Assembly: GCA_965222225.1 (NCBI GenBank)
Contig: CBDCTK010000002.1
Location: 4,352,001 to 4,416,000, forward strand
Direction: 5' to 3'
Source of the DNA: Candidatus Poribacteria bacterium
Lineage (GTDB): Bacteria; Poribacteria; WGA-4E; JAJDTR01
DNA: 64,000 nucleotides
The translations under genes were made by a program, and so were the position numbers. The notes beneath the pieces were generated by a model. The model was not told the origin of the DNA. It saw only the letters and a list, made by a program, of their open reading frames with translations, and searched no databases. How positions within the stretch are numbered: position 1 is the first letter of the stretch; each line of letters opens with the position of its first letter. Below, piece by piece: positions 14,479 to 63,494 of the stretch.

Positions 14479-14517
14479 GGCATTTCTATCGCGCTCCCTG
14501 TCCGGTCGCTTGATCCC
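14479..14517 (+). repeat. GGATCTCTATCGC-N18-YGAT micro-element; further copies at 16927, 20772, 24183, 26484, 34320, 34387, 34600, 34746, 40783, 44271, 45836, 50876, 62279 (+) and 63345..63382 (-)
   Basis: Conserved flanks and fixed TC/T/C spacers in an 18-nt core; variation concentrated in five dinucleotides. Confidence 0.85.
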
Positions 14518-14707
14518 ACTCTGGGGCTTGTGATGTTCGTGCAAAGAGTGTAAGGGACAAATCAGGGCTACGACAATCATATATCGGTTTCAAGGCCAGT
14601 ACTGTTACGGCGAATGGAAATTAAATCGAATGACCTCCCGATTCTGCCTGAACAATCTTTACTTTGCAGAAAAAGCGGGTTTTTGTCATCCGTGGGCGTA
14701 ATTCTTA

Positions 14708-16594
14708 CTAATAATGGAAGCGTTGCAGGCGAAGTCCCTTCTCGTACTCACGCCGTCGTTCTTGCGTCTCGGGATCGTCGCTCACCTCTGCTGCCGCGAT
14801 GTCCCACCACACGCCAGAATCCGGTAGGTAGTGATGGGGCTCAACATCTGCGACTATCACACAGGTTTGACGCTCGCCGCGGGCTTCCCGCAAGGCATGG
14901 CGCATGCCATCCGGTGTTGTTACATGCCATGAGCGCGCACCAAAACTCGCCGCGTTTTGCGCGAAGTCAATCTTCGTGTATTCGCCTTCAAGCCGATTCT
15001 TCTCACCATCCCGTGCCCGGAACTCATTGCCAAACCTGCGCCCTGCGCGGAGCATCTGCAAAGCGCTGATGGATTGGAAACCGTGATTTTCGGACACAAT
15101 CACGGTAAGCTTCAAGCCCTCTTGCATCGCCGTTACCAATTCCGTGGGGTTCATCAGATAGGTGCCGTCACCGATAAACACATAAACTTCCCCTTCCGGC
15201 TGTGTCATGCGGACTCCGAGTCCCGCAGGCATTTCGTAGCCCATACATGAATAGCCAAATTCAAGATGGCACTTCCGACCGCCTGTGGCATCCCACATCT
15301 TGATTAAATCTCCGGGCGTCGTTCCGGCGGCAGCGACAATCGTGTCCCCCGGCTGAGCCTGCTCGTTTACTACTTGGATTAACTTGCCTTGGCTCATTGC
15401 CTCGCCGGCGACTTCCTCCGACACAGCGGCGCCGAGTTGTTCTGTCCACTCCCGATTCAGGCGTTCTATTTCGCTAGTGTACGCCGTGTCAGGCTGAATC
15501 CCCACGCCCTCAGCGGCTTGCGTTAATGCCACTAGCGCCTCTCGCGCATCTGCGACTATGGGCACTCCGCTCTGCTTGTAGGCGTCGTGTCCTCCAACAT
15601 TGATATTGACAAATTTCACCCGAGGGTGATTGAACGCCGTTTGAGAGCCGGTCGCAAAATCCATCATGCGGCATCCGACGCTGATAACCAAGTCTGACTG
15701 ACTCGAGATTTTGGCTGCGGCAGGTGTGCCACTGACGCCCTGCCCTCCCAGAAGCAGCGGAGATGGGTTGCGCATTGCTCCTTTTCCGGCAAAGGTCTCG
15801 CTAACAGGGACACCGAATTTGGTGGAGAAGTCCTCAAGTGCCTTCCACGCCTCCGAATAATGGACGCCGCCGCCGGCAATTATCATCGGGCGTTCCGCCG
15901 CCCGTAACAGTCTCACAGCTTCGATAATGCGCTGCGGATCTGGTACGCGCCGTTCTACTCGCCATTCGCGTCGTTCAAAGAAATCCACGGGGTAATCGTA
16001 TGCATGAGCCTGCACGTCCTGCGGCAGTGAGATGGTGACGGGGCCCGTGTCGGCAGGATCTGTCAGTACCCGCATGGCTTCGGGAAGCGCGGTCAGGAGT
16101 TGCTCCGGTCGGGTGATGCGATCGAAAAACCGACTAACAGGTCGAAAACAGTCGTTGACGCTGACGTCGGCGGAGACAGGGTGTTCGAGTTGCTGCAACA
16201 CAACTCCCTGATATCGCGTGGCGTAGTAGTCGGATGGCAACAGTAGAACGGGCAGCCGGTTGGTGGCAGCCGTGGCTGCTCCGCTAATCATGTTCGTTGC
16301 TCCGGGGCCTATGGACGAGGTACAAGCGAGGGTAGCGAGTCGATAGTTAGCCTTCGCGAAACCGAGAGCAGTGTGCACCATGGACTGTTCGTTTCGGGGC
16401 TGGCGATACGGCAAGTCTTCGCCGTATTCGTACAGTGCTTGACCGAGACCGGCGACGTTGCCGTGCCCAAATATACCGAAGATGGATGGTATCAGTCGAC
16501 GGGATTTGCCATCGCGTTCACTGAATTGTACTTGTAGGTATTTGACGAGTGCCTGTGCCATTGTCAAACGAATGGATTCTTGTGATTGTGACAC
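14708..16594 (-). CDS. iolD: 3D-(3,5/4)-trihydroxycyclohexane-1,2-dione acylhydrolase (ThDP enzyme)
   Basis: IRLTMAQAL, IFGHGNVAG, SSIGPGATN, LQQLEHP, EFGYSCMGYE, GDG...N ThDP motif. Confidence 0.93.
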   Translation of the reverse strand: MSQSQESIRLTMAQALVKYLQVQFSERDGKSRRLIPSIFGIFGHGNVAGLGQALYEYGEDLPYRQPRNEQSMVHTALGFAKANYRLATLACTSSIGPGATNMISGAATAATNRLPVLLLPSDYYATRYQGVVLQQLEHPVSADVSVNDCFRPVSRFFDRITRPEQLLTALPEAMRVLTDPADTGPVTISLPQDVQAHAYDYPVDFFERREWRVERRVPDPQRIIEAVRLLRAAERPMIIAGGGVHYSEAWKALEDFSTKFGVPVSETFAGKGAMRNPSPLLLGGQGVSGTPAAAKISSQSDLVISVGCRMMDFATGSQTAFNHPRVKFVNINVGGHDAYKQSGVPIVADAREALVALTQAAEGVGIQPDTAYTSEIERLNREWTEQLGAAVSEEVAGEAMSQGKLIQVVNEQAQPGDTIVAAAGTTPGDLIKMWDATGGRKCHLEFGYSCMGYEMPAGLGVRMTQPEGEVYVFIGDGTYLMNPTELVTAMQEGLKLTVIVSENHGFQSISALQMLRAGRRFGNEFRARDGEKNRLEGEYTKIDFAQNAASFGARSWHVTTPDGMRHALREARGERQTCVIVADVEPHHYLPDSGVWWDIAAAEVSDDPETQERRREYEKGLRLQRFHY

Positions 16595-17179
16595 TTTCTA
16601 GCTGCCTCCTTTTTGGTTGTTCACGGTTTAATTATTCTTGGCTGAATCTATCTCGAGTTACGCATGTCAAAGGAAGTTCCAGGGGAATCGCATCCAATTT
16701 TTGATTGTAGAGGCCTCCTCTGCCATGCTTTAGACAGGACGTGCAATGAAAAGAGAAGGGGGAAATCGACGATTTAATGAGCGCCGATTCCACAAGAAAT
16801 CGTGACCGGGAGATCGCTCCTACCAGGACCTACACCTGTCGCCCGCTAAGGCTTGGGAGCGTGGGGTATCGGGATTCCTACACACCTTTGATAATCCCCG
16901 ATCGCCTTCGATTTGATTATTGAAGAGGGATTTCTATCGCACTCGCTATCCGCTCATTTTGATCCCCTACAATCAGGTGCGATTGCCCTGAAGGAAGTTC
17001 TCGATCAACCTGAGATAATATGATATACTGTTATGGCGTTGGATGCAACACTTCTCTAAACGAAATCAATTGCATTTGATGTGCGTGTGGGGTACACCAC
17101 GCCGCATTGCAGACTTACGGGCAATCGCAAGCCGTTTATGGGAAATCACCTAGTGCAAAACAGGTGAGTTAGGAGACTA

Positions 17180-62099: not shown

Positions 62100-62361
62100 T
62101 GCACTTTCATGAGCGGAGAAAACGGGTTTTTTTTGAAGGTTCGGGTTCTTTAGCTCGACTTTGTACATCTAAGCGGGATAACGGACAGTGTCAATCAAGC
62201 ATTGAAGAGAAGCAGGGACATTTTGATTATCTGGCTTATTTGATTGACCGCGGTTTCTTATACCCATACAACCTGTGAAGATCTCTATCGCGCTCGCTAT
62301 CCACTCGTTTGATCCCCTCCGGGGCTTATAAGGCTGGCGCAAAGGTTCATCCTGATTTGGG

Positions 62362-63345
62362 GTGAGGGTAATGGCTCTACCCGAAATGAATTTTCAAACA
62401 GACTCTAAACCAACCATGGATTGGACTACATTTGGCTGGGCGGGTATTAGGCTTGAGATTCCTTCCAACTGGGAGTTGAGCGGATTATCAGGAGATGACA
62501 AAGATGGATACTTACGGTTAGACGGCGAGGAGATGCCGCGTCTGGAGCTGAAGTGGGCGCAGTCGAAGAAGAAAAAACCGGACCTTGGCCGTGTTCTGGA
62601 TGAGTATTTCAAGCTAGTACGCAAGAATTACAAGCGTAAAGAGGCCAAGTTGCACATTCAGCGGAATGTGAACCTGGTTAATGATGAATCTGTGTTCGAA
62701 GGACGCGAGGTCGTCAGTTTTACGTGGAAAGGAGACATACGCGCAAACGGTATCATCTTCCACTGCCAAACGTGTAAGCGCATTACAATTGTGCAGATTA
62801 TGGGGCATCTCAAAGAGAATCTGCGCTCGACTACGGTGAGAGTTTTGCAGTCGGTGCAAGATCACCCAGCGACACAGAATGTGCTTTGGAGCGCTTATAA
62901 TCTGAATGTAGAGGTTCCGCGCCGGTATCGATTGGGGAAACATCAACTACTTTCCGGATATCTGCTTTTCTCATTTGCCGATGGGAGTCGCAAAATCAGC
63001 ATTGAACGGTATGGCGTGGCAGATGTGACCCTTAAAGACCAGGACCTAGAGTCGTGGTTCCGCCCTAAATATGCGAAAGCCATCCGTGGATACGGTTTTG
63101 AAATAACCTCACTGACGCATGACGGGGACGAACACCTTAGATTGATTGGCGAACAAACGCGCGTAACCGACCGCATTCCCTTCGCCCCTGTATTGGCGGT
63201 GGATAAGGTGATGCGCCGTCAAGTGTTCGCGGCGTATCTTTGGCGTTGTCATCTCTCAAATCGAATTTACGTTGTGCAGGCTATCGCCAAACGTGACGCA
63301 GCCAAGATTGGCGAGGATGTGGCGGGAAGCATAAAGTGTCATTAG
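62362..63345 (+). CDS. Hypothetical soluble protein with two repeated W.G..lEIP..W-type domains
   Basis: 327-aa ORF; FGWAGIRLEIPSNW and LWSAYNLNVEVPRRY, each followed by a Cys-containing motif; start uncertain. Confidence 0.75.
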   Translation: MRVMALPEMNFQTDSKPTMDWTTFGWAGIRLEIPSNWELSGLSGDDKDGYLRLDGEEMPRLELKWAQSKKKKPDLGRVLDEYFKLVRKNYKRKEAKLHIQRNVNLVNDESVFEGREVVSFTWKGDIRANGIIFHCQTCKRITIVQIMGHLKENLRSTTVRVLQSVQDHPATQNVLWSAYNLNVEVPRRYRLGKHQLLSGYLLFSFADGSRKISIERYGVADVTLKDQDLESWFRPKYAKAIRGYGFEITSLTHDGDEHLRLIGEQTRVTDRIPFAPVLAVDKVMRRQVFAAYLWRCHLSNRIYVVQAIAKRDAAKIGEDVAGSIKCH

Positions 63346-63494
63346 GGATCAACTGAGTGAATAACGAAGGCGATAGAGATCCTTTAGGGGGGCGATGGGA
63401 ATCCTCGTGCGAAAGAACACCAATAGAGATCCTAGGAATATAACAAATCTATCTATGTGCGAATATTCTCAGAAGGAATTCGGGTCTCCGAGGC

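Follow-up and report, generated by a model that had tools for sequence, protein, structure and literature searches.

How does a very short repeat keep its length and certain letters nearly fixed while other letters, always at the same positions, look hypervariable? The question arises from a 64-kb stretch of DNA (hereafter the window) in the genome of a sponge-symbiotic Candidatus Poribacteria bacterium, represented by an assembly of two contigs that totals 5.70 Mb and is 95% complete. An earlier note, made from the letters of the window, had described a dispersed unit of about 35 bp in which fixed TC, T and C spacers alternate with variable dinucleotides, and had proposed either rewriting by an error-prone reverse transcriptase (RT), as in diversity-generating retroelements (DGRs), or a protein-binding scaffold under selection. 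We observed that the variable dinucleotides are four nested base pairs and not the products of an error-prone polymerase, that the fold prefers one strand, that units are present or absent at paralogous and orthologous sites with characteristic junctions, and that the family is biased in orientation and taxonomically restricted.

Covariation and the folded strand

All twelve variable cores listed in the note were found where it placed them and with the letters it gave. A strict pattern, TCTATCGC-N18-YGAT with fixed TC/T/C spacers, had 11 matches in the window at ≤2 mismatches and none in 100 dinucleotide-preserving shuffles of the window, and the anchor TCTATCGC occurred 14 times against 1.83 expected. 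Genome-wide, the strict pattern retrieved 580 copies; a weight matrix trained on these retrieved 1078 at a cut-off score of ≥20, and the reversed matrix retrieved none. The repeat that the note put at 15 sites or more is real, with a count of 13-14 full units in its place: the matrix found 14 in the window, 13 of them within 14479-63382. When the T of TCTATCGC is numbered as position 1, a per-position logo gives positions 1-8, 11-12, 15-19, 22-23 and 26-31 as fixed and 9, 10, 13, 14, 20, 21, 24 and 25 as variable, exactly the contrast between spacers and dinucleotides that had been described, rather than substitutions spread evenly over the unit. The consensus is GGGATC TCTATCGC d1 TC d2 TATYC d4 TC d5 TTGAT, followed by a C that belongs to the target.

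The four column pairs with the highest mutual information, 13-21 (1.14 bit), 10-24 (1.00), 9-25 (0.77) and 14-20 (0.45), form a nested set in which d1 pairs with d5 and d2 with d4. The core, which the note had taken to be non-palindromic, is an interrupted palindrome with mutually complementary arms in which the variable letters alone do the pairing: the fixed TC at 11-12 opposes the TC at 22-23, C8 opposes T26 and G7 opposes T27. The terminal GGGATC and GATCCC are able to pair, the right-hand CC being supplied by the target. An independent sample of 114 copies, drawn from 8-kb stretches of other Poribacteria genomes with a search pattern that left the variable letters free, contained double-sided changes at all four variable pairs, with 150 cells against 55±5 after shuffling (0/500) and a covariation score of 0.386 against 0.131 (0/500); slid registers scored ≤0.089. 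These data support structural selection on the unit, and bear out the view that neutral decay is no explanation for its pattern. The idea of a selected scaffold held as far as selection on the fold is concerned; binding by a protein is compatible with fixed unpaired letters that stand beside covarying pairs, and may be read from them.

Exceptions to Watson-Crick pairing distinguish the two strands. On the written strand, A·C or C·A combinations occur 148, 64, 22 and 18 times at the four pairs and G·T combinations 5-12 times; on the complement we read the former as G·U/T wobbles. With wobbles counted as standard, 84.8% of the cells in 1013 distinct copies are standard on the written strand compared with 94.5% on the complement, and all four pairs are standard in 529 and 826 of these copies, respectively (46 and 95 of 107 in relatives). 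Decay of CpG was rejected as the cause of the A·C bias, since the ratio of observed to expected CpG is 1.17; other mutational biases may play a part. The purine-rich complement reads GATCAA d5' GA d4' GRATA d2' GA d1' GCGATAGAGATCC, so that a tandem G·A mismatch stands where the written strand has its fixed TC/TC, and GRATA forms the loop. Tandem sheared G·A pairs are stable. Among 300 copies sampled at random from the 1078, the complement folded better in 199 and the covariation fold was its commonest minimum-energy structure; with flanks added, the terminal GGAUC and GAUCC close the predicted hairpin. The working form is most likely one folded single strand, the purine-rich complement. In the structure that we propose for it, d1/d5 and d2/d4 would form two 2-bp helices with the tandem G·A mismatch between them and a 5-nt loop as cap, and the terminal GATC palindromes could close the whole fold. 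Paired letters would be free to vary as long as they stay complementary, and unpaired or non-canonical letters would be held fixed because something recognises them.

Each pair takes three to four states (an entropy of ~2 bits), and these states combine almost freely: 563 fully paired distinct units contain 98 pair-state combinations, compared with 135 expected under independence, and mutual information between pairs is 0.09-0.30 bit. This near-free combination of pair states is the basis of the 'hypervariable' look. Long existence with many compensatory changes, exchange between copies by recombination and a process that restores complementarity are all possible sources of the stem diversity.

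Copies in the window and across Poribacteria

All 14 window copies are intergenic by crude calls of open reading frames (ORFs). Several occupy repetitive extragenic palindromic (REP) hairpins of the GTAG-tagged type (REP-A, REP-D) or the GGGGC type (REP-C), and two are carried by a miniature inverted-repeat transposable element (MITE). In the list that follows, slashes mark the unit's junctions, scores are those of the weight matrix, and for some copies the supporting approaches are named.

4896-4933, minus strand: unit copy with core AGTCATTATTCATTCCTT (score 50.6), after which a partial second unit follows
14480-14517, plus strand: unit copy (score 48.9) whose right flank is the rest of a REP-C-type hairpin (ccactctggggc)
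16928-16965, plus strand: degenerate unit copy with an extra T before GAT (score 29.9)
24183-24220, plus strand: degenerate unit copy with anchor TTTATCGT and end TTAATC (score 25.7), within a larger repeat
26484-26521, plus strand: unit copy (score 50.9), then a partial second right half
34218-34455, plus strand: host MITE of ~238 nt with inverted ends ...AGCCTGTTTGAA and TTCAAACAGGC..., carrying two units
34320-34357, plus strand: unit copy in the REP-C hairpin of this MITE (strict pattern and matrix)
34387-34424, plus strand: second unit copy of this MITE, in its GTAG-type REP-A hairpin (gcgcag/GGATC...TTGAT/cgcaccct; strict pattern and matrix)
34601-34638, plus strand: unit copy with mismatched outer pairs (score 38.9)
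34746-34783, plus strand: unit copy in the loop of a REP-D (GTAG-type) hairpin (gcggggcaagG/GGATC...CGAT/ccccgcctac; strict pattern and matrix)
40784-40821, plus strand: degenerate unit copy after a partial left end (score 22.5)
44272-44309, plus strand: unit copy with anchor ACTATCGC, nested among partial copies (score 31.6)
50876-50913, plus strand: unit copy in a REP-D hairpin (ggggcaagg/AGATC...TTGAT/ccccgcctac; strict pattern, matrix and folding)
62279-62316, plus strand: unit copy in a REP-C-type hairpin (acctgtga/AGATC...TTGAT/cccctccggggc; strict pattern, matrix and folding)
63345-63382, minus strand: unit copy (score 56.4)

The reverse strand of the 34746 copy is predicted to form the covariation hairpin with a GGAUC/GAUCC closing stem (-9.6 kcal/mol, z = -1.28). 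A decayed unit (gggatctctatcgtagtccattgtccattcccttcatc) that adjoins a GTAG-type hairpin at 20770-20810 falls below the score threshold, which implies that more decayed copies exist than the 1078 counted.

Of the 1078 copies, 1075 lie on the chromosome, and 918 of these (85%) are intergenic. No 8-mer is more frequent in the genome than GCGATAGA, the complement of the anchor, and ~750 distinct sequence variants of the unit are present. Arrays are rare, 596 clusters consisting of single copies; one tandem array at C2:1578287-1578707 (C2 being the 5.6-Mb contig) has a 38-nt period (...TTGATCCTACAAGACTATCGC...) and stem letters that differ from unit to unit yet remain complementary within each.

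The strict pattern was surveyed across 176 Poribacteria genomes, with a reversed-pattern control that gave 0 throughout. The ten species genomes of the host genus contain 322-794 strict copies each. A genus of another family (g4) has 16-26 dispersed copies, which likewise covary, six Poribacteria genomes have 1-3 strict copies, and one genome of genus g6 has 13 copies clustered on a few contigs; the remainder of the 176 have none. The g6 genome, G057, is the sole member of its genus with more than one match; its copies, on contigs that include C72 and C116, have a density like that of the high-copy genus and may stem from a transferred segment or from contamination of the bin. Only the host genus reaches high copy numbers, and all named records with the pattern are Candidatus Poribacteria metagenome-assembled genomes. 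Because the unit occurs in all ten genus genomes, several of which are single-contig assemblies, and window positions 26000-35999 are present in 20 public runs from 10 studies, we conclude that it is not the adapter or assembly artefact that the note had asked to be considered. Viral contigs contained 0 exact matches to the unit, Rfam returned nothing for the whole window at gathering thresholds or for 34200-34900 at E≤5, and no such repeat turned up for Poribacteria in searches of a limited literature collection.

Insertion sites, turnover and orientation

Empty paralogous sites, defined as places elsewhere in the genome where the 11-mers that flank a unit are adjacent to each other, were found for 132 of the 1078 copies. 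The 132 comparisons of filled with empty sites give a net gain of 33-36 nt per insertion and no duplication. The unit is not the end of a typical MITE or insertion sequence. The right junction is exact, TTGAT being followed by the target C (TTGAT^C). The left junction is ragged: a run of G or A takes the place of 1-3 target bases (TG, CG, G, ATG, CA or T), and a few copies retain the left target bases exactly (cagTG/GATC, ctatCG/GAGT). That the left G-run is templated by a C-run in the target was rejected, the two lengths being uncorrelated (r = -0.03). The host sequences comprise the GTAG-tagged REP hairpins A, B and D, REP-C, the ~238-nt MITE and the unit itself, and empty sites occur in at least five unrelated host sequences, one of them an ORF. 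Both insertions in the window's MITE, which contains REP-C and REP-A, have empty counterparts: MITE copies without the 34320-type insert occur, for example at C2:3849664, and the empty form of the 34387 site, ...gcgcagTGCGCaccctac, is present elsewhere in the genome. MITE paralogues number in the dozens in this genome and its congeners, with 0-5 units.

On the folding strand the insertion point lies after G-S-G (GTAGGGTGCG^, GTAGGTCGGG^, GTAGGCGGGG^, CAGAGGGG^, GGAGGG^), which in GTAG-tagged REPs is ~6 bases past the tag. A folding-strand GTAG, mostly that of a host REP, stands within ~14 nt of ~240 of the 1078 copies, and 649 copies have none within 40 nt. GTAG-tagged REPs are preferred landing sites. 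Involvement of HIP1 was rejected, GCGATCGC being observed 120 times against 87 expected. Nesting is common, the most frequent left flank being the start of another unit (43 copies), and composites of an outer and an inner unit recur as blocks. Among the 121 distinct 31-nt units with at least two occurrences, 84 are found in two or more unrelated flank contexts.

Comparison with the nearest species genome, G005, whose genes are 85-90% identical and which is collinear with the window over 7899-26361 (~18 kb), shows that sites differ between species. Of the four window copies in this stretch, only that at 16928 is at the orthologous place, the sole window copy for which this is so. The sites read ...GCTCGTTTGATC in G005 and ...GCTCATTTTGATC in the window genome, and the two copies differ at two points, a G-to-A substitution in d5 and an extra T; at this one shared site, a resident copy has changed slowly and without in-place hypervariation. 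The 24183 unit is missing from the matching intergenic region of G005, and the G005 counterpart of the intergenic space around the 26484 unit holds a different unit in different flanks. In the reverse direction, 14 of 40 examined G005 copies have collinear flanks in the window genome, and one of the 14 is shared. Two empty sites are particularly clean. In a REP-C hairpin, G005 reads ...cttcaaGATC...TTGAT/ccctccgggg where the window genome reads ...ctgtcg/cccctctgggg, and in a transposase-like ORF a 36-nt (12-codon) unit stands in frame in G005 (L166, ~15331) and is missing at C2:1102335-1102436. The single shared site in 14, together with these clean empty sites, indicates that the family has gained and lost sites since the species split. 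Orthologous regions of the intergenic stretch 34212-34921 from nine congeners were not alignable.

Orientation was compared with the sign of the local GC skew, which the unit matches in 746 of 1075 cases (circular-shift null 533±42; 0/1000); with one copy counted per cluster, agreement is 208 of 312 (null 155±13). The G-rich strand is the one that carries the written, pyrimidine-rich form. We infer from this skew-linked orientation that the unit is connected with replication and with DNA in single-stranded form. Agreement with the majority gene strand, by comparison, is 478 of 1075. The skew of contig C2 itself changes sign at least six times instead of two, in blocks of 0.25-1.7 Mb, which means that large inversions are numerous or that the assembly was joined at repeats.

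Candidate enzymes, rival explanations and known systems

RT and Y1 proteins were named from family searches, PADLOC and motifs compared by eye with Table 1 of PMC6006769. A genome search with RVT_1 (PF00078) gave one match, at C2:4500547-4501089, ~84 kb beyond the end of the window, in a 670-aa protein that PADLOC aligns end to end with the abortive-infection RT AbiA (E = 4e-76). This search found no other RT, intron- and retron-specific families lying outside it, and its sole, AbiA-like match speaks against the DGR idea and lowers the likelihood of an RT-based route. The TnpB-type domain PF07282 was not found in the 95%-complete genome.

Five Y1_Tnp (HUH) matches of at least four types were found (C2:3080258-3080728, 2563965-2564705, 3088937-3089269, 3727739-3727966 and 3560268-3560543), and most of these genes have flanking hairpin repeats of their own, either REP-C or GTAG-tagged REPs of several sequences; the genome is unusually rich in HUH/REP systems. 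A 157-aa Y1 protein with the motifs DHIH and YIKNQEAHH appears, by eye, to fit subclass 1.2 of Quentin et al. 2018 (PMC6006769). Its gene is present in all ten genus genomes, in some with stop codons, and also in genera without the unit. The YIKNNP-type Y1 of the window genome is a C-terminal fragment. A YCYENP-type gene, which contains an in-frame TAG, is accompanied by REPs of its own, as is a YIMKNP-type gene. A 257-aa Y1 gene has no flanking repeat. Between the window genome (C2:2563965-2564705) and G005 (G005:C1:3780663-3781403) the encoded proteins are 99% identical, compared with ~85-90% DNA identity for other genes, and elsewhere there are weak matches; this identity and the scarcity of the gene in congeners suggest recent horizontal transfer. 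A phyletic link between the unit and a Y1 gene was rejected for the 157-aa gene, the YIKNNP fragment and the 257-aa gene, whose distributions do not match that of the unit.

With a confidence that comes near to an even chance and stops short of it, we favour the reading that the units are a genus-wide family of very small, non-autonomous, single-strand and structure-dependent mobile elements served in trans by HUH (Y1) activity. A host-encoded HUH endonuclease (Y1, RAYT- or IS200-like) would act on single strands in a one-ended, replication-coupled manner, and the unit would be selfish rather than host-serving. New copies would enter single-stranded DNA directly 3' of a G-S-G, as read on the folded strand, typically at the G-rich foot of a GTAG-type REP hairpin, in a REP-C hairpin or in the unit's own stem. 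Such an activity would explain why one junction is exact, why nothing is duplicated, why the target word is short, why hairpins are chosen and why the strands are used unequally. HUH transposons of the rolling-circle and single-strand kinds integrate next to a short specific sequence and duplicate none of the target; in the rolling-circle kind, one end can be exact and the other variable.

Several observations weigh against this reading. Classical single-strand HUH transposition gives two exact ends, and the left end of the unit is ragged. No Y1 gene is specifically bracketed by the unit, the nearby copies sitting inside the REPs of the Y1 genes. The 157-aa gene is always bracketed by REP-C and occurs also in genus g6, which lacks the unit; full-length relatives of the YIKNNP-type fragment are bracketed and invaded by another GTAG-tagged REP; and the 257-aa gene is found in three of the ten genus genomes (the window genome, G005 and, as an 87-aa fragment, G009). 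Under the usual meaning of GC skew, taken here as unverified, the folding strand would lie on the leading-strand template, and the polarity reported for IS200/IS605 elements is the opposite, with the active strand on the lagging-strand template. The predicted hairpin is weak (-6.6 compared with -5.8 kcal/mol for shuffled sequences on the better strand; single-copy z of -0.2 to -1.3), and the fold probably needs a partner. The largest groups of identical units are MITE-borne and occupy few contexts, 40 copies in four and 16 copies in three, so part of the copy number is hitch-hiking. Finally, presence or absence of single units within a population is not visible in public data. Three DNA-type runs and one RNA run, all in the form of Logan contigs, were compared with 16800-36799, and because such contigs end at repeats they are uninformative on single-unit alleles, within-site variation and transcription of the unit; joints that touch a unit, whose sides are <30 nt, were left aside.

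A bolder version, possible although we consider it unlikely, treats the unit as a single-strand hairpin cassette of 36 nt, complete in itself and representing the smallest class of mobile DNA, here in a phylum of uncultivated sponge symbionts outside the cyanobacteria. A one-ended reaction coupled to replication would copy it into G-rich hairpin feet by virtue of its fold and a few fixed non-Watson-Crick letters, and its stem pairs would then drift and reassort; the enzyme would be either a Y1/HUH protein acting on unflanked substrates or an undescribed activity. The ragged end of the unit is explained at least as well by templated copy-in as by an HUH enzyme. Here a small purine-rich RNA or DNA template would be copied onto a 3' end at a fork or nick, the G-run priming on a C-run at the 3' end of the template and synthesis running off at the exact 5' end. 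One exact junction, an opposite end with a G or purine run of variable length, the lack of target duplication, a folded strand that serves as template with the written strand preferentially on the G-rich strand, discrete unit lengths (including the 36-nt in-frame case), and nesting and insertion into other repeats in the manner of the small dispersed repeats (SDRs) of cyanobacteria would all follow. An RNA-intermediate mechanism was reportedly proposed for the latter by Elhai and colleagues in 2008. We nevertheless regard copy-in as improbable, since the one RVT_1 match is AbiA-type, in a search that left intron- and retron-specific families aside, and no obvious polymerase is at hand; the length of the G-run is also independent of the target's C-run, and neither a free RNA nor a master gene was found, the Rfam search being empty.

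The unit might instead not be independently mobile, being a module of composite REP/MITE repeats, similar to BIMEs, that is spread by its hosts, by tandem duplication and by recombination, and kept for a host role as a protein-binding or nucleoid site or in RNA stability. The few contexts of the largest identical groups, the block-wise recurrence of composites, the intergenic position of 85% of copies and the frequent nearby GTAG contributed by a host REP agree with this, and the conserved unpaired letters could fit recognition by a protein. Such a passive module explains the hitch-hiking fraction, and not the identical units in unrelated flanks (most of the multi-copy units) or the insert in an ORF, one of the unrelated hosts with empty sites; the sharing of one site in 14 with the nearest species speaks of turnover rather than site conservation, and an orientation unrelated to gene direction argues against a transcript-level role tied to neighbouring genes. 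We hold a resident module to be quite improbable. DGR-like diversification, with an error-prone RT that would copy an A-rich template into the five dinucleotides, has one point in its favour, the look of variable dinucleotides set between fixed spacers. All four bases occur at the variable positions, where changes come in complementary pairs from arm to arm, the copy at the orthologous site differs between species by a single substitution and one indel, and the genome's sole RVT_1 match is a full-length AbiA-type defence RT; in addition, the thousand or so dispersed non-coding targets per genome are unlike any DGR known to us. This last explanation, which the note had put forward, retains hardly any probability.

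The closest described systems are the SDRs of Nostocaceae and the REP/RAYT systems. Elhai and colleagues reportedly described SDR1-8 of Nostoc punctiforme and its relatives as repeats of 21-27 nt confined to a cyanobacterial subgroup, with a secondary structure backed by compensatory mutations, and as nested or lying inside other repeats and mini-transposons. SDRs and the unit are alike in being very short, highly iterated, non-coding and restricted to a narrow clade, in their compensatory structure, and in residing in other repeats, mini-transposons and their own copies. The unit is longer (33-36 nt compared with the 21-27 nt reported for SDRs) and belongs to Poribacteria rather than Nostocaceae, and HIP1 is not enriched in its genome; the likeness to SDRs is one of description. 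Precise insertion into a short G/C-rich word is a further likeness, the unit entering after G-S-G and SDR5, according to PMC4390886, between the third and fourth letters of HIP1. The restriction of SDRs to a cyanobacterial subgroup is also stated in PMC5861425.

REP elements, as outlined in PMC6006769 and PMC3733652, are marked at one end by a conserved tag, GT[AG]G (or CGTC), and these sources, together with PMC3116915, describe their RAYT (TnpA-REP, HUH Y1) partners and their organisation in REPINs, BIMEs and REPtrons. Like REPs, the units are imperfect palindromes of 20-40 nt, mostly extragenic and present in hundreds of copies, and would likewise be recognised as a folded single strand; a further likeness lies in the five Y1 genes and several GTAG-tagged REP families of the host genome, and the unit often stands a few bases 3' of a GTAG on its folding strand. 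In contrast to REPs, it has no GTAG or CGTC tag of its own and no Y1 gene bracketed by inverted copies, its 2-bp stems are interrupted by conserved mismatches and are combinatorially diverse, with 98 pair-state combinations, and it inserts into REPs. Palindrome-associated elements derived from IS200/IS605 and rolling-circle HUH transposons depend on folded single strands, as the unit would, and their orientation is tied to the direction of replication. With IS200/IS605-type elements the unit shares the lack of target duplication and insertion 3' of a short specific word. It differs in having a single hairpin instead of two subterminal ones, a ragged left end, a length ten to a hundred times shorter, no TnpB-type gene and a strand bias whose polarity, on an unverified reading of GC skew, appears opposite. 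It is set apart from the MITEs of DDE transposons by the absence of a target-site duplication, and from DGRs by the absence of a template/variable repeat pair, of A-specific changes and of a DGR-type RT, and by its ~1000 non-coding targets.

If confirmed, the unit would make very small SDR-like elements general genome colonisers in bacteria rather than a cyanobacterial curiosity, and, were the cassette version true, the family would be a natural combinatorial library of one protein-recognised fold. It offers a defined substrate for finding the enzyme (36 nt, four covarying pairs, a tandem G·A motif and a set insertion point), and the variants within one genome are a ready-made mutational scan of that enzyme's tolerance. 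A large part of intergenic turnover among Poribacteria species is due to the units; they break short-read assemblies and can insert in frame into genes, and so matter for the annotation and comparison of these uncultivated symbionts. For repeats in general, apparent position-specific hypervariability should be tested for base-pair covariation first.

Two further observations concern other repeats of the window. In an RNA library of a near-identical strain, a contig of 1918 nt passes from 34217 to 34456 across nothing more than TTGAT; since it lacks exactly 34218-34455, that strain is without the MITE. In four public runs, contig depth at 24137-25470 and 29473-30139 is 10-100x that of neighbouring bins, which points to other high-copy repeats there, for example at ~24289-24322 and 29970-30040.

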